Below, one piece after another: positions 43,226-60,814 of a DNA stretch of 64,000 nt. This DNA comes from Verrucomicrobiota bacterium (lineage in GTDB: Bacteria; Verrucomicrobiota; Verrucomicrobiia; Limisphaerales; CAIMTB01), in NCBI GenBank assembly GCA_963205105.1, contig CAUJJW010000351.1, positions 2,069 to 66,068 of the forward strand, written 5' to 3'. Both the position numbers and the translations under genes were made by a program. The first letter of the stretch is position 1; each line of letters begins with the position of its first letter. The notes under the pieces are model-generated. The model ran no database searches. It saw only the letters and a list, made by a program, of their open reading frames with translations, and was not told the DNA's origin.

Positions 43226-43735
43226 TCATTGGGTTGCGGGTGGTGCCGTGCTCTTTTTCGCGGGTTGGATCTTTTTCATGACGTAGCGGCTCATGGCGGC
43301 TGCGAACGACTTCGGCGGCTCGCCGGGTAGGACGTAATCCGCCAAGGTGAGAGTCCCGTTATCAACCTTGAAGATGGCTCCGACAACTTTGCCGATGCTA
43401 TCGGCCTGTGCTGGCGGACAGTTCCTGATGGTGGCGTGCAGCTGCTTGGGGTCGGTGCCCGGAGGCAGCGTGATCGTCGTCTCAAACCAAAAGTTGGTGT
43501 CCCGGTGAAAATGGAAGGAGCTGCCGGTGATGGTGATGGTGATTTTCTCGGTCGACTTCTCAACCGCATCGGCTTCCTCCCTCACGCCCTCCCATGTTCC
43601 CTGAAGAAGTTGCAGTTCCGCAGCGATTGGCGGAATCACAGCGCATTTGAGATTGGCTGCGAGTTGTTCGCCTGCGTGGGTGCGGAAGGAGGCGATCAAG
43701 CAAGCAAGGGCGATGATGTGTCGGAATGAGTTCAT
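43226..43735 (-). CDS. TIGR03067-like lipocalin-type secreted protein (PVC-typical)
   Basis: ORF 43226..43894, with the ATG at 43735 giving signal peptide MNSFRHIIALACLIASFRTHA. The pattern LQGTWEGV...KITITITGSSFHF...DPKQLHATI...GKVVGAIFKVDNGTLTLA matches the family as I recall it. Confidence 0.7.
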   Translation of the reverse strand: MNSFRHIIALACLIASFRTHAGEQLAANLKCAVIPPIAAELQLLQGTWEGVREEADAVEKSTEKITITITGSSFHFHRDTNFWFETTITLPPGTDPKQLHATIRNCPPAQADSIGKVVGAIFKVDNGTLTLADYVLPGEPPKSFAAAMSRYVMKKIQPAKKSTAPPATQ

Positions 43736-48049: not shown

Positions 48050-48605
48050 GGGCGGCGAGGCCCTGGGCGATGCGGTCCAATTTCTGACTGGCGTTGGTTC
48101 CTGGCAGATAGGGGCCTGAGACATGGGCCAGGAGCCGGCCGTCCTTGCTGATGGCGAAGATGTTGGCGGCCTTCTTTTCGCAGGGAAGGCCGCCGGTCAC
48201 TTTCCCCTCGAAATCGAGCAGGAGCGGTTGGGTCCGGCTTTTACGAATGGCATCGGTGATGCGGCCCCGCAGGAACCGTGGCACGGCCTGCACGTCGGCG
48301 ATTCCCTGGATGTCGGCGACATCCTTCCAGCGCTGTTTCAGGGGATTGATCCAGGCGTCGATTTCCTCGGAGCCGCGGCGATCGCCGACCAGAAGGAGCA
48401 ACGGGCGGGTCCTGGGAAACCGGATGGTGTGCTGGGTGCCGAATTGGTCGGCGAGCTGGAACGACTCGATGCGAGGGGATTCAGGGCGGGGTGCGGCCCC
48501 TGAAGCGGTCACGAGTCCGAGGCACCCGAGGATGACGAACAGGCCGAGAAGCGGGGTTCTCCGGGGTGTTTTTGAGGCAGCGAGGGGTGAGTGTGGGGAG
48601 GTCAC
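48045..48605 (-). CDS. hypothetical lipoprotein, last gene of the carotenoid operon
   Basis: ORF 48045..49010. The GTG at 48605 overlaps the glycosyltransferase stop (GTGA) and gives VTSPHSPLAASKTPRRTPLLGLFVILGC (lipobox-like ILGC). It may have a thioredoxin-like fold without CxxC, but that is a guess. Confidence 0.55.
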   Translation of the reverse strand: MTSPHSPLAASKTPRRTPLLGLFVILGCLGLVTASGAAPRPESPRIESFQLADQFGTQHTIRFPRTRPLLLLVGDRRGSEEIDAWINPLKQRWKDVADIQGIADVQAVPRFLRGRITDAIRKSRTQPLLLDFEGKVTGGLPCEKKAANIFAISKDGRLLAHVSGPYLPGTNASQKLDRIAQGLAAP

Positions 48606-49864
48606 GCCGTGGGATGAGAGTTCGCGGGTACGCTTGCCGGATGCGCGTACTGACGTCCACGCCATTCCATGGGGCGACCGCGCCAGCGGCGGACGAGGGC
48701 CTCCCATTGAATGAGAACGAGCGCGGTGACTCCCAGGGGGTGAAGAAGTGCACCCAGAAGGCTTTGGCGGAATCTCCAGGCGGCGGCGAGTCGCATCACC
48801 GTGCCCAGGCTGGCGGCGATGCTGGCGATGAAGAGGGTGGTGGTTTCGATCGGGAGGAGCAGCCCCGCGGCGAGAAGGATCCACGGGAGGACATGACCAC
48901 TGAGGAGCAGCACGGACCAGGGAACAATTGCCGCCGGGTGGGCCATCCCCTCGGTGGCGTTCTTGCCGAGACCACGCCAGACGGTGCTGGCGGAGGAGTA
49001 CATGCGGCAATTGGCGAGGTCGGTGGCGTCGAAGAGGCCGGTCTGAAGCCCGTGCCGGCGAAACGACCGTGGCAATTGCACTCCGTCATGGAGCGAGGAT
49101 CGGATGTTTTGATGGCCGGCGGCGGCGAAGTAGGCGCCACGTCGGGCGACAAACAACTGGCCGCAACCGGCGGCGAACGCGCTCCAGCGCGTCCATTGGG
49201 CCGCCACCATGGGCAGGTACCCGAGCAGGATGGTGTGAATGAGGGGGATCAGGAGTTTCTCGAGGAACGTTCCGGTGAATTGCCGGGGGACGCCGCTGGC
49301 GAGTTGCACGTCCGGGTGGGTTTCGAAGTAGCGCGCGAGGCGGGGGAGAGCCCGGGGAGCGAGGCGCACGTCCGCATCGAGGAACACCAGGAAATCGCCA
49401 TGGGCCGCCTGGGCCAGCTGCCAGCAGGCATGCTGTTTGCCGCACCAACCCTCGGGCAGACGTTTGCCGGTCACGAGCCGCACCCGGGGGTCCTCGGCGG
49501 CCACGCTCTGGACCTGCGAGGCGGTGGCGTCGGTGGAATGATCATCCAGAACGAGCACTTCGAACTGCGAATGGACGTCGGCGAGGATGGCCTGGAGAGC
49601 CGGAACGATGGCGTGCTCTTCGTTGCGTGCGGGGATGAGGATGGAGAAGGAAGGATTGGCGCAGGCGTTTCCAGGGCTTCGCGGGTTGGTCGTCTCGGGA
49701 TGAGCCGGAGTCGTTTCGTCGGTGGGGAGCGCGGTGCCGCCCGGAAGGCGGCGGTAGAACGGCAGATTGGCGACAAAGAGCAGGGCTGGAAGTGCTGCCA
49801 AAGCGAGGCTGAACCAGGCGAGGATTCGGGGGAGTTGATCGAGGCTGAAGGAAAGGTCGCTCAT
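48602..49864 (-). CDS. membrane glycosyltransferase family 2 (carotenoid glycosyltransferase CrtQ/CruC-like by context)
   Basis: 420 aa. GT2 core: FSILIPARNEEHAI...VLVLDDHSTDAT...GKQHACWQ...FLVFLDADV. It is flanked by TM helices. The start overlaps the acyltransferase stop (ATGA). Confidence 0.85.
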   Translation of the reverse strand: MSDLSFSLDQLPRILAWFSLALAALPALLFVANLPFYRRLPGGTALPTDETTPAHPETTNPRSPGNACANPSFSILIPARNEEHAIVPALQAILADVHSQFEVLVLDDHSTDATASQVQSVAAEDPRVRLVTGKRLPEGWCGKQHACWQLAQAAHGDFLVFLDADVRLAPRALPRLARYFETHPDVQLASGVPRQFTGTFLEKLLIPLIHTILLGYLPMVAAQWTRWSAFAAGCGQLFVARRGAYFAAAGHQNIRSSLHDGVQLPRSFRRHGLQTGLFDATDLANCRMYSSASTVWRGLGKNATEGMAHPAAIVPWSVLLLSGHVLPWILLAAGLLLPIETTTLFIASIAASLGTVMRLAAAWRFRQSLLGALLHPLGVTALVLIQWEALVRRWRGRPMEWRGRQYAHPASVPANSHPTA

Positions 49865-50732: not shown

Positions 50733-52313
50733 CTACGCGGCAGCGACGAGGCTGTCGGCGCTTCGGTTGGTGGCGGCGGATTTGGGGGCGATGCCGTCCT
50801 GGTCGAGGGTGTCGGCGGCGATCCAACCGGACATGAGGACCATCGGCATGCCGGGTCCTGGATGGGCGGCGCCGCCGGCGAGGTACAAGCCCTGGAGAGG
50901 GGAGCGATTGTTGGGTTTGAAGGCGCCGAGGAACCGGCCGTGGCTGGCAAGGCCGTAAATCGCGCCGTTCAGCACCTGGTATCGGTTGTGGATATCCTGG
51001 GGCGTCAACCAGCGCTCGGTGACGATGCGGCTTTCGATATCCTTCATGCCGCCGGTTTCGGCCAGCTTGCGCAGGATGACGCGACGGTACTCGGGGAGCA
51101 TGCGGCTCCAATCATGGTGCGGGCGAAGGTAGGGGGTATGAACCAGGACGTAGAGGGCCTCACCGCCGGCGGGTGCGACCTGGGGTTCGGTGAAGGACGG
51201 CGCGCAAACGTAGGCTGTTGGGTCGGGGGCGGGCTCTCCCTTGCGGTAGATGGCGTCGAACTCCTCATGGGGATCGCGGGAGAAGACGAAGTTGTGATGC
51301 AGGATGTGCTCGTAGCGCTGGCGAAGTCCCAGATAGAGCACGACGCCGGAGCAGGCGGCCTCGAAGCGCTTGCCTCCCAAGAAGCGACGGGCAGCGGGAT
51401 GATCGGGGAGGAGATCGGAGAAGGTGCGAACGCTGTCCCGATTGGAGACGACGCCGGCGAGTGGGATGGTCTGGCCGTTCTGAAGTTCGACGCCAGTGGC
51501 CCGGTTGCCCTGGGTAAGAATGCGGGTCACGTGGGAGTTGGTGCGGATCTCCACGCCCAGTTCCTCCGCCAACCGGGCGAGCGCGAGCGGCACGGCCCGT
51601 GTTCCGCCGATGGGGTACCAGACGCCTTCGTTGCTCTGCATATGGGCGATGCCGCAGAGGACCGCCGGGGATTGTTCCGGGGATGAACCGACGTATTGCG
51701 TGTAGTGATCAAGCATCTGGGCCGCACGCTCATCCGGAACGTACTTGCGGATCGTGGCGGCAACCGTGCTGCCCATGCGCATTTGAAGAACGTCGCCCAG
51801 GACGGAAGGACTGGCGGCGGTCTTGAACTGGAACATGTCGCCGATCCCGCCAATGGGCTTGTAGAAGAAGTAGCGCTGGGAGATGTCGTCCAGGCGCATC
51901 GAATGCTTCATGAACCGCCGGTAACCGTCGCCGGAACCGGAGCCTGGGGCGTGCTGATCCAGGCGAGTCGCCATGGCGTCGACGTTCTGGAGCAGGTCCA
52001 GGGAAGAACCGTCCTGGAAGAAGCAGCGCCATTGGGGATCGAGGCGACGGAGGTCCAGGTAGTCTTCCAGATCGCGACCGGCCTCCTCGAAGACGCGCCG
52101 GAGGACCGACGGCAGCGTGAGGATGGTGGGGCCCATGTCGAAGCGGAAGCCCTGCGATTCGTGGATGGCCGCCTTGCCGCCGATCCAGTCATTCGTCTCG
52201 AACAGGACCACGCGATAACCGCGGGCAGCGAGAGTGCAGGCGGCGGCGAGACCGGCGAGGCCTCCGCCGATGACGCCGATGGGATGATCCGAGGAAGTGT
52301 TCATGGACGGCAA
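50733..52313 (-). CDS. phytoene-desaturase-family FAD oxidoreductase (CrtI/CrtN/CrtP-like)
   Basis: 526 aa. Dinucleotide fold: IGVIGGGLAGLAAACTLAARGYRVVLFETNDWIGGKA. Further motifs: FRFDMGPTILT, and the C-terminal LYLAGGAAHPGPGMPMVLMSG. Confidence 0.85.
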   Translation of the reverse strand: MPSMNTSSDHPIGVIGGGLAGLAAACTLAARGYRVVLFETNDWIGGKAAIHESQGFRFDMGPTILTLPSVLRRVFEEAGRDLEDYLDLRRLDPQWRCFFQDGSSLDLLQNVDAMATRLDQHAPGSGSGDGYRRFMKHSMRLDDISQRYFFYKPIGGIGDMFQFKTAASPSVLGDVLQMRMGSTVAATIRKYVPDERAAQMLDHYTQYVGSSPEQSPAVLCGIAHMQSNEGVWYPIGGTRAVPLALARLAEELGVEIRTNSHVTRILTQGNRATGVELQNGQTIPLAGVVSNRDSVRTFSDLLPDHPAARRFLGGKRFEAACSGVVLYLGLRQRYEHILHHNFVFSRDPHEEFDAIYRKGEPAPDPTAYVCAPSFTEPQVAPAGGEALYVLVHTPYLRPHHDWSRMLPEYRRVILRKLAETGGMKDIESRIVTERWLTPQDIHNRYQVLNGAIYGLASHGRFLGAFKPNNRSPLQGLYLAGGAAHPGPGMPMVLMSGWIAADTLDQDGIAPKSAATNRSADSLVAAA

Positions 52314-52351: not shown

Positions 52352-53899
52352 TCAGGCGGTGTGCATCAGTTCGGAGGGATGCGCGTGAGCGGATACGGAG
52401 GGAGGGGTCGCCCAGGCCGCGGGCATTCCGAAATCCTCCAAGAGCAACCTGGAACTGATGCGGGCGCTTTCGAAGATGACGGGGAGACCGCTGCCAGGGT
52501 GGGTGCCGCCGCCGACGAGATAAACGCCGTCGAGATCCTCGAAGCGATTCCGGGGCCGGAGGTGGAGCATTTGGTCGAGCGAATGCGCGAGGTTGAAGGT
52601 GGCGCCGCGGTAGATCTCGTAGCGTTGTTCCCAGTCGGCGGGAGTGATGACCCGCTCGAAGCGAATCTGCTTTTCGGAGACGTCGAAGCCGGCTTCGGCG
52701 ATCCGACGGAGGGCCAGTTGCCGGTAGCGGGGGCGTTCCCGGGCCCAGTCGACGTTCGGATGCTGATGCGTGACGGGGAGCAGGACGTACAGGGCGCTGT
52801 GGCCCTTGGGCGCGAGGGTGGAATCGGTGATGGACGGATTCTCGACGTAAAAGGACGGCTCGTCGCCGAGGGTGTGGCGGTTCTCGATGTCGTCGAGGTT
52901 TCGGCGGTAATCCTTGGCGATGTAAATGTTGTGATGCGGCTGCGAGAAGGTGCCTTCCACGCCCAGGTACATCATGAAGGTCGAGCAGGAGTACTTTTTC
53001 TTGGCGAGTTTGGCGTCGGTCCAGCGGCGTCGGAGGTGGTCCGGGACGAGCTTGGACATCGAGCGGGCGAAGTCGGCGTTGACCACGAGGGCGTCGGAAC
53101 GGTGGACACCAGAGGAGGTGCGGACGCCAACGGCGCGGCGGCCTTCGAAGAGGATTTCCTCGACGGGTTCACCGAGGTGGAACTCGACCCCGAGACGTTC
53201 GGCGAGGCGAGCCATGCCCTGGGTGATGGCGCCGCAGCCGCCGATTGGATGGAAGACGCCGTACTCGTATTCCAGGAAGGACAGAATGCTGAAGAGGCTG
53301 GGGCACCGGAACGGCGACATGCCGAGGTATTTGGACTGGAAACTGAAGGCGAGCCGGATGCGGGGGTCACTGAAGAATCGGGCGAGGTAGGTGTCGACGG
53401 ACTGATGCGGCCGGACCATCGGCAGCATTTTCAGCATGCGCAGATTGAGCAGGTCGGACCATCCGAGGAAGGGATTCTGGAGGCACGGCATCATGGCGTG
53501 CAGCTTCACGCGGTTCTCCTCGAGAAACCGGCGGAAGTTCGGGGCGTCCTGCGGGGCGACGGCCGCGATCTGACGCTCCATGGCCTGCACATCGGATGTG
53601 CATTGAAGTTCGCCGCCGGCGCCAAAGATGAGTCGGTACTGGGGGTCCAGGCGGACCATGGGAACCTCGGTGTCAAGCCGTGCTCCGGCGGCGGCGAAGA
53701 TCTCGCGCAACACCTGGGGATACAGGAAGAACGTGGGGCCGAGATCGAATTTGTAACCGCTGGCCTCGATGGTGGAGGTGCGTCCCCCCACGAACGGCAT
53801 GCGCTCAAAGACGCGGACGCGTTGGCCACTGGCGGCGAGGAGGATGGCGGAAGCGAGGCCGCCGGGTCCGGCTCCGATGATCGTGATCTGTTTGCTCAT
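52352..53899 (-). CDS. phytoene-desaturase-family FAD oxidoreductase (CrtI/CrtN/CrtD-like)
   Basis: 515 aa. Reads ITIIGAGPGGLASAILLAASGQRVRVFERMPFVGGRT, then YKFDLGPTFFLYP, and the C-terminal VYLVGGGTHPGSGLPVIFESA. Confidence 0.85.
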   Translation of the reverse strand: MSKQITIIGAGPGGLASAILLAASGQRVRVFERMPFVGGRTSTIEASGYKFDLGPTFFLYPQVLREIFAAAGARLDTEVPMVRLDPQYRLIFGAGGELQCTSDVQAMERQIAAVAPQDAPNFRRFLEENRVKLHAMMPCLQNPFLGWSDLLNLRMLKMLPMVRPHQSVDTYLARFFSDPRIRLAFSFQSKYLGMSPFRCPSLFSILSFLEYEYGVFHPIGGCGAITQGMARLAERLGVEFHLGEPVEEILFEGRRAVGVRTSSGVHRSDALVVNADFARSMSKLVPDHLRRRWTDAKLAKKKYSCSTFMMYLGVEGTFSQPHHNIYIAKDYRRNLDDIENRHTLGDEPSFYVENPSITDSTLAPKGHSALYVLLPVTHQHPNVDWARERPRYRQLALRRIAEAGFDVSEKQIRFERVITPADWEQRYEIYRGATFNLAHSLDQMLHLRPRNRFEDLDGVYLVGGGTHPGSGLPVIFESARISSRLLLEDFGMPAAWATPPSVSAHAHPSELMHTA

Positions 53900-54005: not shown

Positions 54006-54746
54006 CTACCTCGACTGGACGGTGCTCATGCCGCCGTCGACGCCCAGAATCTGACCAGTGATCCAGGACTGTTCCGGTGACAGCAGCCAGGCGATGGCGC
54101 CGGCGATGTCTTCGGGGGTGCCGATGCGTCCGAGCGGGTGGAGTGCGGTCGAAAGCTTGAGGTTGGCATCGCTGGCGGTGATGGAGGCGGTGAGAGGGGT
54201 GCGAACAAGGCCGGGAGCCACCGCGTTGAAGCGGAGTCCCTGGCGGGCGTACGAGGCGGCGGCGGACCTGACAAGGCCTTCCACACCGGATTTGGCCGCC
54301 GCGATCGCCTCGTGATTGGCGAGTCCGCGTTGGCCGGCGACGGATGAAACAAGAACGACCGAACCTCCTGGCGTGCGGGCCATCTGTCGGGCAGCGGCGC
54401 GGACCACGAGAAAGGCGGACGTCAGGGAGGTGGAGATGGTATGAGCCCACTCGGCGTCGGAGGTGAGGTGGGCAGGTTTGAGAAGAATGGAGCCGACACA
54501 GTGGGCGACTCCGGTCACGGGGGCGAGGGACTCGGCGATTTTCGCGAAAACATCATCCACCTCAGCGGCAACCGTGGCATCAGCGGGGAAGGAAGGAGCG
54601 TCGAGTTCGCGACTGAGGGAGGCGAGACGCTCCGGGTTGCGACCGGAGAGGGCAAGGCGGGCGCCTTCACGGTGAAGGCGCCTCGCCAGGGCAGAACCGA
54701 TGCCCCCTGTGGCACCGAAAATCAGGATGACGCGGTCGGACGTCAT
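54006..54746 (-). CDS. short-chain dehydrogenase/reductase (SDR)
   Basis: 246 aa. Cofactor motif: IFGATGGIGSALARRL. Catalytic motif: YAAAKSGVEGLVRSAA. The C-terminus (GQILGVDGG) is typical of classical SDRs. Confidence 0.9.
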   Translation of the reverse strand: MTSDRVILIFGATGGIGSALARRLHREGARLALSGRNPERLASLSRELDAPSFPADATVAAEVDDVFAKIAESLAPVTGVAHCVGSILLKPAHLTSDAEWAHTISTSLTSAFLVVRAAARQMARTPGGSVVLVSSVAGQRGLANHEAIAAAKSGVEGLVRSAAASYARQGLRFNAVAPGLVRTPLTASITASDANLKLSTALHPLGRIGTPEDIAGAIAWLLSPEQSWITGQILGVDGGMSTVQSR

Positions 54747-54783: not shown

Positions 54784-55815
54784 TCAGGTCGCCTCCGGAA
54801 CCGATTCGCGCTGTTCAATCCATTTGCGCAATTTGCAGAGCGCGATGTTTTGCAGCTGCCGGATGCGTTCCCGGGTCAGGCTGAACATTTCGCCGACCTC
54901 CTCGAGCGTCTTCTCGGAGCCGCCTTCGAGGGCAAAGCGCTGGCGGAGAATGGTGAGCTCCCGGTCGTTGAGCCGGCTCAACAACTCGCGAACCATATCG
55001 GCTCGGGTGCGCTGATCCAGATCCTGGTAAGCGGTCGTGGAGCGCTCATCCGCCACCACCTCGGAGACCGTGCTGCTGTCGTCGTCGCCGAGTTGCGCGT
55101 CGAGCGAGATGGTGCTGAGCATGGCCCGTCGCATCTTGCGGATGCGAGCGATGGGCATGTTCATCTCGTCCGCGATCTCCTCATCCGTGGCTTCACGGCC
55201 AAGCTCCTCGTGGAGTCGGGAGTGGATGCGCCAGAAGTGGGCGATGCGGTCGCGCAGATGGATCGGAATCCGGATGGTGCGCGACTGGTTGGCGACGGCT
55301 CGCTTCACCGCCTGCTTGATCCACCAGGAACTGTAGGTGGAGAACTTGGCACCCTTGGTGGGGTCGAAGTAATCCACAGCCTTCATGAGGCCGATGTTGC
55401 CTTCGTTGACGAGATCAAGCAGCGGAACGCCGTGATGTTCGTAGTCGCGGGCGATCTTGACGCACAACCGAAGGTTGGCGCGGATCATGTGTTCGCGGGC
55501 TTTCTTGTCGCCGCGCTGGATGCGACGCGCCAGTTTGACTTCTTCGCCGGGGGTGAGCAGGGGGACCTCGGAGATCTCACGCAGATATTGCTCGAGCGGC
55601 GATCGGACCCCGAGAGCGCGGGAAACAGGTTCCAATGGCAGCGTCGCTGGCAGGGCATCCTTGGCCGTGACGGCGGTGGAGTCCGGCAATCTCGGCGGCT
55701 CGGTCGCACTCGCGAGCGGCGCCGCTTCGATGCGGGCCAGGGTCGAGGTTGCCATCGAGGGGTCGATGTTCTTGGCGTTGGACTTCTTTCGGATGCTATT
55801 CATTTCCGTGGTCAA
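54784..55815 (-). CDS. RNA polymerase sigma-70 family factor, RpoD/RpoS-like (regions 1.2-4), first gene of the carotenoid operon
   Basis: 343 aa. Region 2: MIRANLRLCVKIARDYEHHGVPLLDLVNEGNIGLMKAVDYFDPTKGAKFSTYSSWWIKQAVKRAV. It continues TIRIPIHL. Region 4: LEEVGEMFSLTRERIRQLQNIALCKLR. Only 37 bp separate it from the downstream SDR gene. Confidence 0.9.
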   Translation of the reverse strand: MTTEMNSIRKKSNAKNIDPSMATSTLARIEAAPLASATEPPRLPDSTAVTAKDALPATLPLEPVSRALGVRSPLEQYLREISEVPLLTPGEEVKLARRIQRGDKKAREHMIRANLRLCVKIARDYEHHGVPLLDLVNEGNIGLMKAVDYFDPTKGAKFSTYSSWWIKQAVKRAVANQSRTIRIPIHLRDRIAHFWRIHSRLHEELGREATDEEIADEMNMPIARIRKMRRAMLSTISLDAQLGDDDSSTVSEVVADERSTTAYQDLDQRTRADMVRELLSRLNDRELTILRQRFALEGGSEKTLEEVGEMFSLTRERIRQLQNIALCKLRKWIEQRESVPEAT

Positions 55816-55954
55816 AGGTTCGTAGACTTAAACCAGACTAAACCTATCCGATTTACTACCGCCTCCTTGACTGGTTTGACTGTTGAAACGTTCAAATCGG
55901 CTCTCGAAATCTTTTCAACGCCGCCAGTTTGTTCCTCAGAATTGATGCTGTCAA

Positions 55955-56200
55955 TGCTTTGTCTATAAAATGTCTGTCTAAATCTAACATCGGCTTTGGC
56001 TGTGTGTGGGTTTGGGAGAGCTTCTGTTGAGCGGGATGGGTTGGGTGAATGTCGGCGGAGAGAAGGCGGTTGTGGTGCTTTTGCGGATGTTTAGGTTGCT
56101 GGAGGTTAAAGATTCTTGCGGTGACCGTGGATCCGGCGGCGAGGGGTGAGGTGGTGTTGCAGGATTTGGGGGTTGAAATTGTCTAGTGTTTGTCTAATTT
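55955..56200. promoter_or_regulatory. divergent promoter region with TGTCTA/TAGACA repeats (candidate CarH/LitR operator)
   Basis: This intergenic region (55816-56205) is conspicuously AT-rich. TGTCTA occurs at 55961, 55976, 56180 and 56191. The last two are exactly 11 bp apart and end 10 bp before the GTG of the MerR-B12 gene. Read on the minus strand, AAATTAGACAA and ACACTAGACAA fit (perfectly and 4 of 5 positions, respectively) the 11-bp nAnnTnnACAn direct-repeat consensus I recall for CarH operators. Confidence 0.45.
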
Positions 56201-56205
56201 GAGGC

Positions 56206-57297
56206 GTGGTTCCGCTCCAGCACCCCATTCAAGTTGTGTCGCATCTTACCGGGTTGAGTCCTCATGTGATCCGGGTTTGGGAGAAGCGATACGGCGCGGT
56301 GACGCCGGCTCGGACCGATACCAATCGGAGGTTGTATTCCGATGCGGAGGTGGAGCGATTGCGGCTCTTGGCGCGGGCGACCGAGGTGGGGCACAAGATT
56401 GGGATCATCGCCAAACTGGAGATGGCGGACCTGCGTCGGCTGGTGGCGACCGTGTCGATGGGGGTTCATGGATTGGACGCGGTGAGTCACGCCGCCCCGG
56501 AGGCGGGGACCCCGCTCAAGGAAACCAAAATGGGTGGATCCGTGGTGAAACCCTGGATGCCTCCCGAACCCGAGGGAGCAGCTGTTGGGCCGTTGCCAGG
56601 ATCCGCGGAGCAATCGGATGCGCGTCTGGTGGTGGAGGCCCTGGAGGCGACGCGTTCCTTCCGCTCGGATGCACTTCAACGAGTCTTGGAGCAAGGCTCG
56701 GTTCGAATGGGGCACAACGGGGTGCTGCATCGGTTGATCTGTCCGTTGGCGCAGGAGATTGGGGAACTTTGGCAACGGGGAGAGGTCACGGCGGCTCACG
56801 AGCATTTTGCCTCGGCGGTCATCCGGGATTTTCTGATGCGCAGTGCGCGGCCGTACGCCACGGAGGACGGTGCTCCGCGGGCGATCGTGACAACACCGGC
56901 GGGGCAATTGCACGAGTTGGGGGCGGTGATGGTGGCGGCGGCGGCGGCGAATCTGGGGTGGCGCCCGATCTATCTGGGGCCGAGCCTGCCTCCGGCCGAG
57001 ATCGCGGGAGCAGCGCTTCAGAACAGTGCCCGCGCGGTTTTATTGAGCATCGTGTACCCGGCGGACGACCGCTGGCTGCCGCGGGATCTGATTCAATTGC
57101 GCAAACTTCTCCCGCCTTCGGTGGAGATCGTGGTGGGTGGACGGTCGGCGCGGGCTTATGCGGACGTGCTGAAGGAGATCGGGGCCATCTCACCGGATGG
57201 ATTGGAGGAACTCAGCGATCTGCTGGAGGAGATGCGTGAGGAGAGTGGGGCGGAGGAAGGTCAGTCGGGTAGTGTTGCGGGTGGGAATGGAGCCTGA
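56206..57297 (+). CDS. MerR-family HTH + B12-binding domain regulator, CarH/LitR-type (putative AdoCbl photoreceptor)
   Basis: 363 aa with a GTG start. MerR HTH: IQVVSHLTGLSPHVIRVWEKRYGAVTPARTDTNRRLYSDAEVERLRLL. Wx9EH motif: ELWQRGEVTAAHEHF (W at 56770, EH at 56800-56805). B12 lower-ligand motif: TTPAGQLHELGAVMVAAAAANLGWRPIYLGPSLP (His codon 56911-56913). Confidence 0.85.
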   Translation: MVPLQHPIQVVSHLTGLSPHVIRVWEKRYGAVTPARTDTNRRLYSDAEVERLRLLARATEVGHKIGIIAKLEMADLRRLVATVSMGVHGLDAVSHAAPEAGTPLKETKMGGSVVKPWMPPEPEGAAVGPLPGSAEQSDARLVVEALEATRSFRSDALQRVLEQGSVRMGHNGVLHRLICPLAQEIGELWQRGEVTAAHEHFASAVIRDFLMRSARPYATEDGAPRAIVTTPAGQLHELGAVMVAAAAANLGWRPIYLGPSLPPAEIAGAALQNSARAVLLSIVYPADDRWLPRDLIQLRKLLPPSVEIVVGGRSARAYADVLKEIGAISPDGLEELSDLLEEMREESGAEEGQSGSVAGGNGA

Positions 57298-57381
57298 GCC
57301 GGGCTTCGGGTGGGTCCGGGCCTGACGGCCGGGGGAGGACGTGTGTAACCTGGTGTGCGAAACCCATCAGGAACCCGGCGT

Positions 57382-60090
57382 ATGAGCATTGATTCGACTT
57401 TGAGCCAACCGGGAGCACTTCGGTGTCCCGTGTGTGGTGCTCCCCAGTCCGCCACCGCTCCTGACGGTCTGTGTCCCAAATGTCTGTTGGAAGGCGCCCT
57501 GCTGCCGACGGAGCCCGGCGAACCAGGACGATCCACGCGTCCGGGCGTGCCGGATCTGGCGCGGCTGGCGGAGGCCTTTCCGGAATTGGAAATCCAGGGG
57601 CTTTTGGGCGTGGGTGGCATGGGCGCGGTCTTCCGGGCGCGGCAACCGCATCTGGATCGGTGGGTGGCGCTGAAGGTGCTTCCCGAGTCGTTGGCGGCGA
57701 AGCCGGCGTTTGCGGAGCGCTTCAACCGCGAGGCGCGCACGCTGGCGCGGCTGAACCATCCCAACATCGTGACCGTGCACGATTTCGGACGTCGGGCCGG
57801 GTTCTACTTCCTGCTGATGGAGTTCATGGATGGCGTGAACCTGCGTCAGGCGATGCGGGCCGGGCGGTTCACCCCGGAGCAGGCGTTGGGGTTGGTTCCG
57901 AAGATCTGTGAAGCCCTGCAGTTCGCCCACGAGGAGGGCGTGCTGCACCGGGACATCAAGCCCGAGAACATCCTGTTGGACGGGCGTGGGCGGGTGAAGA
58001 TCGCCGACTTCGGTATTGCGAAGCTTCTGGGCGAATCGGAGGCGGACCCTTCACTGACCGTGAGCGGCGCGGCGTTGGGAACCCCGGCCTACATGGCCCC
58101 CGAGCAGATTGAGAACCCCTCGCAGGTGGATCACCGGGCGGACATTTATTCGTTGGGCGTGGTGTTCTACGAAATGCTGACGGGCGAACTGCCGCTCGGC
58201 CGATTCGCGCCGCCCTCGGAGAAGGGGACGGTGGACCCGCGGGTGGATGAGATTGTGATGCGGGCCCTGGCGAAGGAACGGGAACTCCGTCAGCAGAGCG
58301 CGACCCAGGTGCGGACGGAAGTGGAGGGTGTGACGCAATCGGCGCCCACTCGCGGGAAGGCGGACCGGGCGCCATCGGCGGTTGGAAACCACGGCTCCGG
58401 GAGGGCGCAACCGGATTTTGTGCTGTGCCATCCGTGGCTGCCCAGCATGGCTCAATGGATCACCGTCTACGCCCTGGTGGTGATGCCGGTGTTGTGGCTG
58501 CTGGGTCTGACCACGTTGGAGGACATGAAGGATCCGAGTCCCTACGCGCAGTTCCTTCAGTCCATCATGAATGTTCTGCTGGTCATCGGCGAACTGGCCG
58601 TGGTGATCACGCTGGGGGTCGGGGGGTGGAAGTTGCGGGCGTTGCAGGTGTCGGGACCGCGGCTGCTCCGGGCGGGGATCTGGGCGCATCTGGTTTTGGG
58701 TGTGGTGTTGGTGACGCTCGTGGTCTGGCTGGAGACCGTTCGTCGGGTGCCTTCGGCCGAGGGGATTGCGCCTGGGGAGGCGTTGCTCGCGGTGGCGGGG
58801 TTGGCGGCGATGGTGTTCGAGATTTCGGCGCTGATCTGGCTGAGGCGGCACGCGCACCGGTTGGCGGTCATCTTCGCGGAGGAGGCTCCTTCATCGGTGG
58901 ATGCGGCGGCGGAGGTGGCGATGACGGCTCCCACGGTGGGGGTGGCGCGGTATGCGACGCTGGGGGCAATACTGACGGCGTTGAGTGTGGTGTTGGGGCT
59001 GGCGGCGATCGGGGGCGGGGCGTTGTTAGGGGTGTCCTGGTACCAGAACCGATTGGACCATGGGCCCGGCTTTGGACTGGGATGGGTGGATATGGTCCTG
59101 GCGCTCGTGGGCGTGCCAGTGGTCGGCGGCGGCGGCGTGGTGGGATTGATTCTGGGTTGGTCCTCCTTGCGTGAAGTCAAGCGGAGTGGAGGCACGCTGG
59201 GGGGTGTGGGGCGGGGGATGTGGGCCGGGCTTGCCTGGCCGTTGATCCTGGCGGAACTGGCGGTGCTGGTGGGGTTGGGCTGGATGTTCCATCGGGTCGG
59301 GGGCGGATTCTGGGTGATGTTCCTGATCACGCTGGTCGGAGCGATGGCGGTGGCGGAGTGGATGGTGCGATCGACCTGGCGCTGGGTCCGGGGGATTCCG
59401 GCGGGTCAGCGCATGGGTCGTTTGTCGGGAAGTGGGCGCGGGTTGGTGGTGGGATCGGTATTGGCGGCGGTGGTGACGCTCTTTCCGGCCTATTCGGTGG
59501 GCTGGACGAACTACCTGCGGTCGCAGGTTCCGGAGATGGTGGCGGTGGTGCGGCCGGCGGATGGAGGACCGCGAAATGGCGACTGGGTGGCCGTGTATCC
59601 GCCGCGGTCGATCGTCAAGTTGAGTGCGACGGTTTATCGGGATGGTGTTTTGCAGGCCGAACCACGCTTCGAGGCGCATGTGCTGAACGGTTCGGTTTGG
59701 GAATCGGTGGAAGCGCCGATTCACCTGGAGAATGCCGTCGATGGGGACGGGCACTATTGGGGTGGCTGGCGGCTGAATGTGGTGACGGAGCGACACACGG
59801 TGGCCTACACCTCGTCGGCGGAGTGGAGTCGACGGGTTTTATGGCAACCGCCGGCGTCGGGCCGGGAACTGCGCATTGCGGTGAACCGGATGGACGAGGC
59901 GGTTGTTCTGGTGGGACGGGTGTTGGGACCGGTTCCGGAGGGGCCGGAGTGGCAGGTGCGTCTGAAGATCCGGGTGGAGCCGCTGCCGCCTAACTACATG
60001 TTCGAGGGTGCGATCGCCGGGCAGGGCGACGACTGGGAGAAGACCGCGGCGTATGCCGTGTCCCTAGAGGAATCCAAAAGTGATGAATGA
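57382..60090 (+). CDS. membrane Ser/Thr protein kinase with N-terminal CxxC..CxxC zinc-ribbon-like motif, polytopic TM region and C-terminal extracytoplasmic domain
   Basis: ORF from 57355 (GTG), with ATG at 57382. N-terminal motif: CPVCGAPQSATAPDGLCPKCLLEG. Kinase motifs: GVGGMGAVFRA, VALKVL, HRDIKPENILLD, DFGIAKL, GTPAYMAPEQ. About 8-10 hydrophobic helices follow, then a C-terminal domain of roughly 200 aa. Confidence 0.9.
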   Translation: MSIDSTLSQPGALRCPVCGAPQSATAPDGLCPKCLLEGALLPTEPGEPGRSTRPGVPDLARLAEAFPELEIQGLLGVGGMGAVFRARQPHLDRWVALKVLPESLAAKPAFAERFNREARTLARLNHPNIVTVHDFGRRAGFYFLLMEFMDGVNLRQAMRAGRFTPEQALGLVPKICEALQFAHEEGVLHRDIKPENILLDGRGRVKIADFGIAKLLGESEADPSLTVSGAALGTPAYMAPEQIENPSQVDHRADIYSLGVVFYEMLTGELPLGRFAPPSEKGTVDPRVDEIVMRALAKERELRQQSATQVRTEVEGVTQSAPTRGKADRAPSAVGNHGSGRAQPDFVLCHPWLPSMAQWITVYALVVMPVLWLLGLTTLEDMKDPSPYAQFLQSIMNVLLVIGELAVVITLGVGGWKLRALQVSGPRLLRAGIWAHLVLGVVLVTLVVWLETVRRVPSAEGIAPGEALLAVAGLAAMVFEISALIWLRRHAHRLAVIFAEEAPSSVDAAAEVAMTAPTVGVARYATLGAILTALSVVLGLAAIGGGALLGVSWYQNRLDHGPGFGLGWVDMVLALVGVPVVGGGGVVGLILGWSSLREVKRSGGTLGGVGRGMWAGLAWPLILAELAVLVGLGWMFHRVGGGFWVMFLITLVGAMAVAEWMVRSTWRWVRGIPAGQRMGRLSGSGRGLVVGSVLAAVVTLFPAYSVGWTNYLRSQVPEMVAVVRPADGGPRNGDWVAVYPPRSIVKLSATVYRDGVLQAEPRFEAHVLNGSVWESVEAPIHLENAVDGDGHYWGGWRLNVVTERHTVAYTSSAEWSRRVLWQPPASGRELRIAVNRMDEAVVLVGRVLGPVPEGPEWQVRLKIRVEPLPPNYMFEGAIAGQGDDWEKTAAYAVSLEESKSDE

Positions 60091-60814
60091 CGAACGCCCA
60101 GGTGCGGATGGCGTGTTTGCCACCACGCGATGGACGCTGGTGGCGCGGGCCCGGGGCGAAAGTCCCGAGGCCCGCATGGCGCTCAGCGATCTCTGTGCGG
60201 CGTACTACGGGCCGGTGGAGGCGTTCATTCGCCGGCAGTCCACGGAGGTGCAGGAGGCGAAGGATCTGACGCAGGAGTTCTTCGCGCGCCTGCTGGCGGG
60301 ATCGGGGGTGGGCGGAGCGGATCGGGAGCGTGGTCGGTTCCGCTCCTATCTCCTGGGAGCGGTGAAGCATTTCCTGCACGCGGAATGGGTGCGGCGATCG
60401 GCGGCGAAGCGGGGGGCGGGGGCGGAGCATTTGCCGTTGGAATCCGAGGGAACCACGGAACCCGGGATGCAGGTGGCGGATACGGGGGCGGTGCCGGCGG
60501 ATGTGGCCTTCGACCGGGAATGGGCGCACGCGCTGTTGGACCGGGCGTTAACCCGGCTGGGTGTGGAAATGGCGGCGGAAGGCAAGGCGCGGCACTACGA
60601 GGTGCTCAAGGGATGCCTGCAAGGAGCGGCGGTGGTTCGGCCGCAGGCGGAACTGGGCGAGGCGCTGGGGATGAGTGAAGCGACGGTGAAGGTGGCGATT
60701 CACCGGCTGCGGAAGCGGTTCCGGCAAGTGGTTCGGGCGGAAATCGCGGAGACACTGGCGGATGGGGCACAGGTGGACGAGGAGATGTGGCACCTGATCC
60801 AGGCGCTCGGCTAG
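60083..60814 (+). CDS. ECF-type sigma factor associated with the Ser/Thr kinase (ECF43-like context)
   Basis: ORF from GTG 60080 or ATG 60083, overlapping the kinase stop (60088-60090). The N-terminus reads FATTRWTLVARARGESPEARMALSDLCAAYYGPVEAFIRR. Region 2-like: RFRSYLLGAVKHFLHAEW. Region 4 HTH: ELGEALGMSEATVKVAIHRLRKRFRQ. There is no anti-sigma-like gene next to it. Confidence 0.8.
   Translation: MNDERPGADGVFATTRWTLVARARGESPEARMALSDLCAAYYGPVEAFIRRQSTEVQEAKDLTQEFFARLLAGSGVGGADRERGRFRSYLLGAVKHFLHAEWVRRSAAKRGAGAEHLPLESEGTTEPGMQVADTGAVPADVAFDREWAHALLDRALTRLGVEMAAEGKARHYEVLKGCLQGAAVVRPQAELGEALGMSEATVKVAIHRLRKRFRQVVRAEIAETLADGAQVDEEMWHLIQALG

Follow-up and report, generated by a model that had tools for sequence, protein, structure and literature searches.

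A predicted CarH-type B12 photoreceptor gene lies divergent from a group-2-like sigma-70 gene heading a carotenoid operon in Verrucomicrobiota

Results

Organization of the locus

We analysed a 64,000-nucleotide stretch of DNA (the window: positions 2,069 to 66,068 of contig CAUJJW010000351.1, assembly GCA_963205105.1) from a Verrucomicrobiota bacterium, in which a carH/litR-like gene, predicted to encode a B12-dependent photoreceptor-repressor, is transcribed divergently from an alternative sigma-70 gene. The sigma gene is followed on its own strand by a short-chain dehydrogenase/reductase (SDR) gene, two genes of the CrtI family, an acyltransferase gene and a glycosyltransferase family 2 (GT2) gene:

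56206-57297, plus strand: carH/litR-like gene, GTG start, 363 aa
54784-55803, minus strand: alternative sigma-70 gene, ATG start, 339 aa; the public gene call is 100% identical
54006-54746, minus strand: SDR gene (Pfam adh_short_C2, E 1e-61), starting 37 bp past the sigma stop
52352-53899, minus strand: CrtI-family gene 1 (TIGR02734)
50733-52313, minus strand: CrtI-family gene 2 (TIGR02734)
49861 to ~50718, minus strand: PlsC-type acyltransferase gene (Pfam)
48602-49864, minus strand: GT2 gene (Pfam)

The initial annotation, made from the letters alone, had set the sigma gene 37 bp ahead of SDR, desaturase, acyltransferase and GT2 genes, and both the coordinates and the Pfam and TIGR02734 assignments agree with it; the two CrtI-family genes score 518 and 409 bits, above the TIGR02734 cut-off of 238. 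For comparison we took the best 80 CarH loci, in 62 of which the gene upstream of carH is identifiable. The same operon gene order is found again in these related loci, and the nearest to the window are Verrucomicrobiota metagenome-assembled genomes (MAGs), which fits the earlier guess of a bacterium of the Planctomycetes-Verrucomicrobia-Chlamydiae type. Read from its first TTG, the sigma open reading frame (ORF) is 54784-55815, and the publicly called start is the ATG at 55803; the divergent gap is 402 bp counted to the ATG and 390 bp counted to the TTG, the latter being the length first reported. Its AT-richness holds as well, with a GC content of 48% (200-nt minimum 42%) against 64% for the window.

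The CarH-like protein

The 363-aa protein combines a MerR-type winged helix-turn-helix, a long disordered linker, a four-helix bundle and a Rossmann B12 domain, with the following features:

56227-56418, plus strand: MerR-type winged-helix DNA-binding domain (residues 8-71; PF13411 MerR_1, E 4e-14)
56476-56586, plus strand: disordered linker insertion (residues 91-127; predicted local distance difference test, pLDDT, < 50)
56761-56805, plus strand: GxxW-x9-EH motif (G186, W189, E199, H200), predicted upper-face contact of adenosylcobalamin (AdoCbl)
56902-56922, plus strand: GQLHELG, with His236 the predicted lower axial cobalt ligand from the alignment with Thermus thermophilus CarH (TtCarH)

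Pfam places B12-binding_2 at residues 154-207 and B12-binding (PF02310, E 5e-13) at residues 225-326. The MerR domain aligns with the DNA-binding domain of TtCarH, and its segment H20-Y29 (HVIRVWEKRY) is invariant in an alignment of 45 homologues. The linker insertion adds about 40-45 aa, typical relatives being 305-325 aa long. W189, E199, H200 and H236 match W131, E141, H142 and H177 of TtCarH residue for residue; the first three, as W189-x9-E199-H200, lie in the string ELWQRGEVTAAHEHF, and the B12 domain further shows QLH236ELG, S260-L-P and G311-G312. A Wx9EH motif and GQLHELG...YLGPSLP in a 363-aa MerR protein were what had first drawn attention to this gene, and both strings are in place. 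GxxWx9EH is conserved in 80 of 81 homologues, 78 of which keep count for GxxHxxG, and in the 45-member alignment GxxWx9EH, Q234, H236, E237 and G239 do not vary. The light-response signature that a 2024 study gives as SignatureFinder elements, GxxW, EH, GxxH and GxxxP (PMC11796333), is complete in all four, which read GELW, EH, GQLH and GPSLP.

A phmmer search of the PDB returned Thermus CarH/LitR (3whp and 5c8d) as top matches, with E ~1e-28. The AlphaFold (AF2) model, built from the 45 homologues, has a pLDDT of 88, and the top 50 PDB matches retrieved with it by Foldseek are all TtCarH; the cobalamin-binding domain (CBD) superposes with a template modelling (TM) score of 0.81 and a root mean square deviation (rmsd) of 2.9 Å over ~204 residues. 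Since a PduO-type adenosyltransferase is encoded in the genome, the bacterium can make AdoCbl.

Two observations weigh against a light sensor of this class. The NCBIfam CarH equivalog NF052513 is the top match but reaches only 126 bits against a cut-off of 400, and the D/ExHxxG motif opens with Gln instead of Asp/Glu, a Gln that is invariant in the 45 homologues. Both would suit a MerR regulator that binds B12 as a gauge of cobalamin supply, or a CarA-like repressor that does without B12. However, intact Wx9EH is what sets CarH apart from CarA, which lacks its Trp (PMC9304148), and here the full GxxWx9EH is invariant; moreover, the genes targeted are those for carotenoids, the output classically tied to photoprotection, and the CBD fold is like that of dark-state TtCarH. 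We therefore regard a regulator of this other kind as most improbable. Its sequence and signature residues, its predicted fold and the type of its operators (described below) place the protein among the class I CarH/LitR AdoCbl photoreceptor-repressors, in line with the CarH/LitR type given in the initial annotation, and it would be expected to bind AdoCbl and to respond to light.

Operators and promoters of the divergent gap

CarH operators are built of tandem 11-bp direct repeats, nnnnTnnACAn, one of them holding the -35 hexamer (PMC9304148). The gap has two arrays of this kind, together with candidate promoters and a conserved element in the sigma leader:

55949-55981, plus strand: operator O1, repeats in an 11-bp register, TGTCAA at 55949, TGTCTA at 55960 and TGTCTG at 55971
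56179-56200, plus strand: operator O2, two perfect 11-bp direct repeats, TTGTCTAGTGT and TTGTCTAATTT
56173-56200, plus strand: candidate carH promoter, TTGAAA-16 nt-TAATTT, with O2 filling the spacer and the -10
55926-55954, minus strand: candidate sigma-operon promoter, -35 TTGACA (55954-55949, in O1), 17 nt, -10 CAAACT (55931-55926)
55867-55895, minus strand: conserved leader element, TTGAAC-17 nt-AGTCAA (GGTCTA in relatives), in the window and loci L008-L013

On the minus strand, O1 reads cAGACA-n5-TAGACA-n5-TTGACA from 55976 to 55949, so that its last repeat is a perfect TTGACA facing the sigma gene; an overlapping TGTCTA is also found at 55975. The conserved partner, TGTCAA-n5-TGT(C/T)TA, is present in nearly all related loci. 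The repeats of O2 likewise read nnnnTnnACAn on the minus strand (TAGACA-n5-TAGACA at 56196-56180) and end 5 nt before the carH GTG, and most related loci have an equivalent pair 5-25 nt before carH. The candidate carH promoter, which a consensus promoter scan of the gap missed, lies so close to the start codon that the carH mRNA would be leaderless or have a very short leader; the layout is shared by related loci, in which a TTGC-type hexamer precedes the repeat pair. The positions of both promoters are predictions from these patterns.

The strict motif TGTC[AT]A-N5-TGT[CT]TA occurs twice in the 8.18-Mb assembly, both times in the carH-sigma gap. We compared the gaps of 61 related loci with an identifiable gene upstream of carH: 50 hold at least one tandem repeat pair, always in one orientation and never in the opposite one, where shuffled gaps gave a mean of 0.5 loci and coding sequence 0 of 61. 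TTGACA is invariant across 56 related loci, and in most a CAnnnT hexamer follows 17 nt on. Anchored on TTGACA, the consensus towards the sigma or crt genes is T(A/G)(A/G)ACA-n5-TTGACA-n13-TAGACA-n5-TAGACA, with the CAnnnT -10 overlapping the third repeat; the main operator of most relatives consists of two repeat pairs at a 19-bp offset. The small clade to which the window belongs is without the downstream pair; its three repeats are contiguous and extend upstream from the -35, which they include. These patterns support a sigma gene placed behind a promoter whose -35 lies within a CarH-type repeat.

Three points count against such an arrangement: the proposed -10, CAAACT, is weak; the only match of the consensus scan in the gap is a plus-strand sigma-70 promoter, TTGATG-18-TAAAAT (55942-55971), which overlaps O1; and the conserved leader element, which has a fixed 17-nt spacer and lies between the sigma start and O1, might act as another sigma promoter with regulation of its own. 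Taken together, they could mean that the sigma gene stands outside CarH control, O1 serving only a plus-strand carH promoter and a leader promoter (e.g. TTGAAC-N17-AGTCAA) answering some other signal. Against this, the invariant TTGACA faces the sigma or crt genes in 56 loci, with a further TAGACA pair over the -10 in most of them; carH has its own repeat pair and -35-like hexamer by its start; and the leader element is confined to the window's small clade. We hold a sigma gene free of CarH to be improbable.

The leader element is followed by the blocks AAATCGGA and AGTCTGGTTTA (the second also read AGTCTtGTTTA); the blocks are conserved in the clade and the spacers between them are not. It could be a second promoter (ECF-like GAAC/GTC; ECF, extracytoplasmic function), a pair of inverted CarH half-sites 22 bp apart, or an RNA element. 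The RNA of the sigma leader folds into one weak 9-bp hairpin (-5.2 kcal/mol) with almost no covariation, and an Rfam search of 55600-56400 with E up to 1 gave no riboswitch or known RNA. We rejected the element as a regulon promoter, as a genome scan with TTGAAC-N17-(A/G)GTC(T/A)A returned its own site and one coding match, and no second intergenic copy. DNA looping between O1 and O2, which are 231 bp apart and in helical phase here, is not claimed either, the spacing being 73-169 bp in relatives.

Recurrence of the carH-sigma pairing

The gene upstream of carH encodes a sigma factor in 38 of the 62 related loci (within 1 kb in 36) and an SDR or CrtI in the other 24. In a less biased sample, with genomes drawn evenly from the window's order, CarH is found in 59 of 151 genomes; of the 58 besides the window's own, 30 carry a short sigma gene within 2.5 kb of carH and divergent from it. 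The pairing first seen in a single sequence is therefore a conserved one within the order. In the phylum as a whole, few genomes have CarH (14 of 401), and among the 13 others the sigma gene accompanies it only in the one of the same order.

One genome (G011) has two carH paralogues, at loci L136 (G011:C5:134000-152000) and L082; a stand-alone sigma gene is the partner of one, and SDR/crt genes are the partners of the other, which has its own operators. Four loci (L020, L026, L028 and L038) are of Verrucomicrobiota type but come from MAG records titled 'uncultured Bifidobacterium/Bifidobacteriaceae'; their sigmas group within Verrucomicrobiota clades, and the taxonomy of the records looks wrong.

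The sigma factor

The window sigma has Pfam regions 1.2, 2, 3 and 4, lacks region 1.1 and begins with a variable, basic tail of ~70 aa. Its best NCBIfam scores are against RpoS (290 bits, cut-off 379) and Sig70-cyanoRpoD (274 bits, cut-off 385); it stays under every curated NCBIfam cut-off, and no named family (RpoS, cyanobacterial RpoD-like, SigB) claims it. Regions 1.2 and 3, together with scores closest to RpoS and RpoD, uphold the initial annotation in calling the candidate relay factor RpoD/RpoS-like rather than ECF. Whether it was housekeeping or dedicated had been made to depend on another rpoD in the genome, and there is one: contig C66 encodes a 712-aa RpoD with region 1.1, which scores 391 bits against the RpoD_Cterm cut-off of 354, where the window sigma scores 259. 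Because of this separate RpoD the window sigma is not the housekeeping factor. A second short sigma is encoded on contig C13 and a group-3-like sigma on C190. As judged from its sequence, the window sigma is a full-length, group-2-like, non-ECF and non-housekeeping factor.

In a tree of 70 sigmas from 11 genomes together with the carH-linked copies, the long RpoD proteins form one clade and stand apart from a 'short sigma' superclade, with support of 96/82. Within the latter, one clade has a single member in 10 of the 11 sampled genomes, including the C13 copy, and the carH-linked sigmas fall into several faster-evolving clades, mixed with unlinked paralogues. On this tree, the carH-linked sigmas may have had one origin or several. 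No CarH repeats were found near the unlinked short paralogues.

In region 4.2, TRERIRQ is kept in all short sigmas and is identical in the genome's own RpoD. Region 2.4 differs: the window sigma has WWIKQAVKRA where its own RpoD has WRIRQAITRS, and all short Verrucomicrobial sigmas read WWIKQ(A/S)(V/I)KRA, with Lys in place of the Thr of that RpoD. This position is, we assume, that of Escherichia coli T440, a -12 contact.

Relation of the sigma gene to the carotenoid genes

The sigma gene and the next gene are separated by 37 bp in the window and by 14-42 bp in 15 related loci, and a consensus scan of the 37-bp gap found no promoter-like site; the SDR gene is probably co-transcribed with the sigma gene. 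In the 24 related loci in which the sigma gene is absent, the same TTGACA and repeat promoter directly drives SDR or crtI, and from these loci it follows that the adjacent carotenoid genes need no sigma for light regulation. Two groups of relatives pull the other way: in L009-L012 and L035, 120-390 bp lie between sigma and crtI, and in L072, L082 and L083 a terminator-like hairpin, with no crt genes, comes after the sigma gene. Co-transcription of the sigma and the next genes is accordingly not universal.

These relatives are among the evidence for a strict relay of the LitR-LitS kind, in which CarH would repress only the sigma gene and itself, the crt promoters would depend on the sigma, and the sigma would be obligatory for pigment induction. 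The topology, too, is like that of the bidirectional litR-litS promoters of Streptomyces (PMC11519972). Furthermore, the unlinked crtI genes of two genomes (G011 and G013) have no CarH repeats within 1.5 kb, and the Lys in region 2.4 may let the short sigmas read a different -10. On the other side stand the 37-bp gap with no promoter-like site, the 24 sigma-less loci, and the second carH of G011, which is directly paired with SDR/crt genes; in addition, our searches for a shared sigma-dependent promoter motif found none. We consider an obligatory relay unlikely.

The initial annotation had pictured a cascade from CarH to the sigma and from the sigma to the carotenoid genes. Its first step gains from the CarH-type repeat promoter before the sigma gene; the strict order is not supported, given the 37-bp gap and the sigma-less loci, and also because CarH seems to have another direct target, the fasciclin gene described in the next section. 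In our best reading, the sigma gene is the light-induced first gene of the operon and a member of the regulon, and not an obligatory relay. A relay role at unlinked genes, or in those relatives where a terminator-like hairpin follows the sigma gene, is possible.

A motif, GGGCGGAGCTTTG(T/C)C, is conserved in the 216-290-bp sigma-crtI gap of loci L010-L012, at a place where the window has the SDR gene. As a sigma-dependent motif it was discarded, its four matches in the window's genome being scattered and none tellingly placed. A terminator-like hairpin at 54746-54727 was also set aside; it lies within the start of the SDR coding sequence, and the count of such hairpins is near the shuffle expectation.

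Other predicted CarH targets and pathway genes

In three relatives, the extra strict operators all precede fasciclin-domain genes. In the genome of the window, a relaxed repeat array lies directly upstream of a gene for a 162-aa secreted fasciclin protein on contig C3 (C3:43299-43889): TGCACA-n5-TAGACA-n5-TGAACA at 43299-43326, and TCAACA-n5-TACACA at 43385-43401, the latter pair at the ATG. From this array, the C3 fasciclin gene seems to be another direct target of CarH. A fourth extra strict operator, in genome G004 (L155), precedes an SDR gene and a gene for a PQQ-type beta-propeller protein, PQQ_2/BamB-like. In L023, L047 and L056, the gene that follows the carH-linked sigma encodes a protein with a signal peptide and a WPQWRGP start; if it and the PQQ_2/BamB-like protein are of the same kind, this would be a further recurrent regulon member. 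We found no contrast in the number of extra operators between sigma-bearing and sigma-less genomes, with 0-5 per genome in both groups, and dropped the idea that the former have fewer.

The genome has two SQS_PSY genes (squalene/phytoene-synthase family) only, C322:6133-7008 and C111:34677-35567. Both are unlinked to the carotenoid operon, so the supply of pigment precursor is not under a CarH operator, and a synthase gene was rejected as part of the module, the two lying on other contigs and having no CarH repeats. Likewise, no crtB was found within 6 kb of carH in the 80 related loci. The C322 gene is preceded by a gene for a sigma-54 activator and by a small Ser/Arg-rich ORF.

Two overlapping genes follow carH after 58 bp (57355-60814): the first, for a 911-aa polytopic Ser/Thr kinase, runs into the start of the second, which encodes an ECF sigma; the pair could share the carH transcript and hence be light-induced as well. 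It was not retained as a member of the module, since it lies beside carH only in the nearest relative, L008. In 12 related loci (L014 and 11 others), carH is directly followed by a gene for a ~145-aa protein that is weakly SRPBCC/polyketide-cyclase-like (Pfam E 0.003, under the cut-off).

Discussion

We consider it probable that the locus is a class I CarH switch in which the sigma factor is light-induced and is not needed for the adjacent carotenoid genes. In the dark, the AdoCbl-loaded CarH-like protein, presumably as an oligomer, would bind O1 and O2 in the 402-bp region, O1 covering the TTGACA -35 of the leftward promoter and O2 the spacer and -10 of the carH promoter. On exposure to UV, blue or green light, the Co-C bond would be photolysed, the repressor would come off the DNA and both promoters would fire. 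The leftward transcript would carry the group-2-like sigma-70 gene first and then, by read-through of the 37 bp, the genes for the SDR, the two CrtI-family proteins, the acyltransferase and the GT2, whose products would make and tailor a carotenoid. The sigma factor would likely serve to bring the light response to unlinked promoters, or to amplify it there.

A bolder proposal, which we offer tentatively, is that the sigma linked to carH is a dedicated 'light sigma' that, on derepression, would redirect RNA polymerase to an unlinked photoprotection regulon; it would then be the first sigma of a non-ECF, group-2-like kind to answer directly to a B12 photoreceptor. The Lys in place of what we take to be T440 might let such a factor recognise a -10 whose base at -12 is not T, and the factor might also reinforce its own operon. 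In lineages where the sigma gene is the only one behind carH, it would be the sole output of the switch.

CarH/LitR switches are the model of B12-based light sensing and are much used in optogenetics. The pairing with a sigma gene recurs in about half of the CarH-bearing species sampled, within one order of Verrucomicrobiota, and the comparative data define an operator consensus and a proximal TAGACA pair. The predicted direct regulon comprises carH, the sigma-crt operon and a secreted fasciclin protein, the last of which hints at a recurring light-controlled surface protein. Our literature searches, whose coverage was incomplete, found nothing on CarH or B12 photoregulation in Verrucomicrobia, nor on a non-ECF sigma under CarH.

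Among known systems, Thermus thermophilus CarH/LitR (5C8D, 5C8E, 5C8F, 3WHP) shares with the protein described here the domain order, Wx9EH and the His lower ligand, and its operator is likewise a tandem array of 11-bp nnnnTnnACAn repeats with the -35 inside one of them (PMC9304148). It differs in sequence (identity ~28-31%), and the protein here has a disordered linker insertion of ~40 residues, QxH for ExH, and two separate operators; moreover, the Thermus and Bacillus operators have three or four contiguous repeats, whereas most relatives of the window have two pairs 19 bp apart. In Thermus, the downstream regulator is the CRP/FNR protein LdrP and not a sigma factor.

Myxococcus xanthus CarH blocks Pcrt in a way that resembles the arrangement proposed here, since a housekeeping-sigma promoter with its TTGACA -35 in a repeat stands directly before the carotenoid genes (PMC9304148, PMC8156234). 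In that bacterium, however, carH lies within the crt operon, and the ECF sigma CarQ belongs to a separate, B12-independent singlet-oxygen pathway.

Group 2 sigmas of cyanobacteria, SigB-SigE, are non-essential, RpoD-like factors without region 1.1 whose expression changes with light; we know of no control of them by a B12 photoreceptor and of no linkage to a carotenoid operon.

The closest parallel to the pairing itself is in Streptomyces coelicolor and S. griseus, where AdoB12-LitR represses the bidirectional litR/litS promoters in the dark and light induces LitS (PMC11519972). There, too, photoreceptor and sigma genes stand back-to-back and share a control region, which here bears the operators. 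LitS, however, belongs to the small ECF (group 4) sigmas, and transcription from the crt promoters (GCATCCR-N15-CVGAAD) depends on it, whereas the sigma described here has regions 1.2-4, is RpoD/RpoS-like and has the carotenoid genes in its own operon. In the CarH/LitR cases that we found, a downstream sigma, where there is one, is a small ECF type, and an RpoD-like sigma heading an operon with a CarH operator is a new wiring of a known switch.

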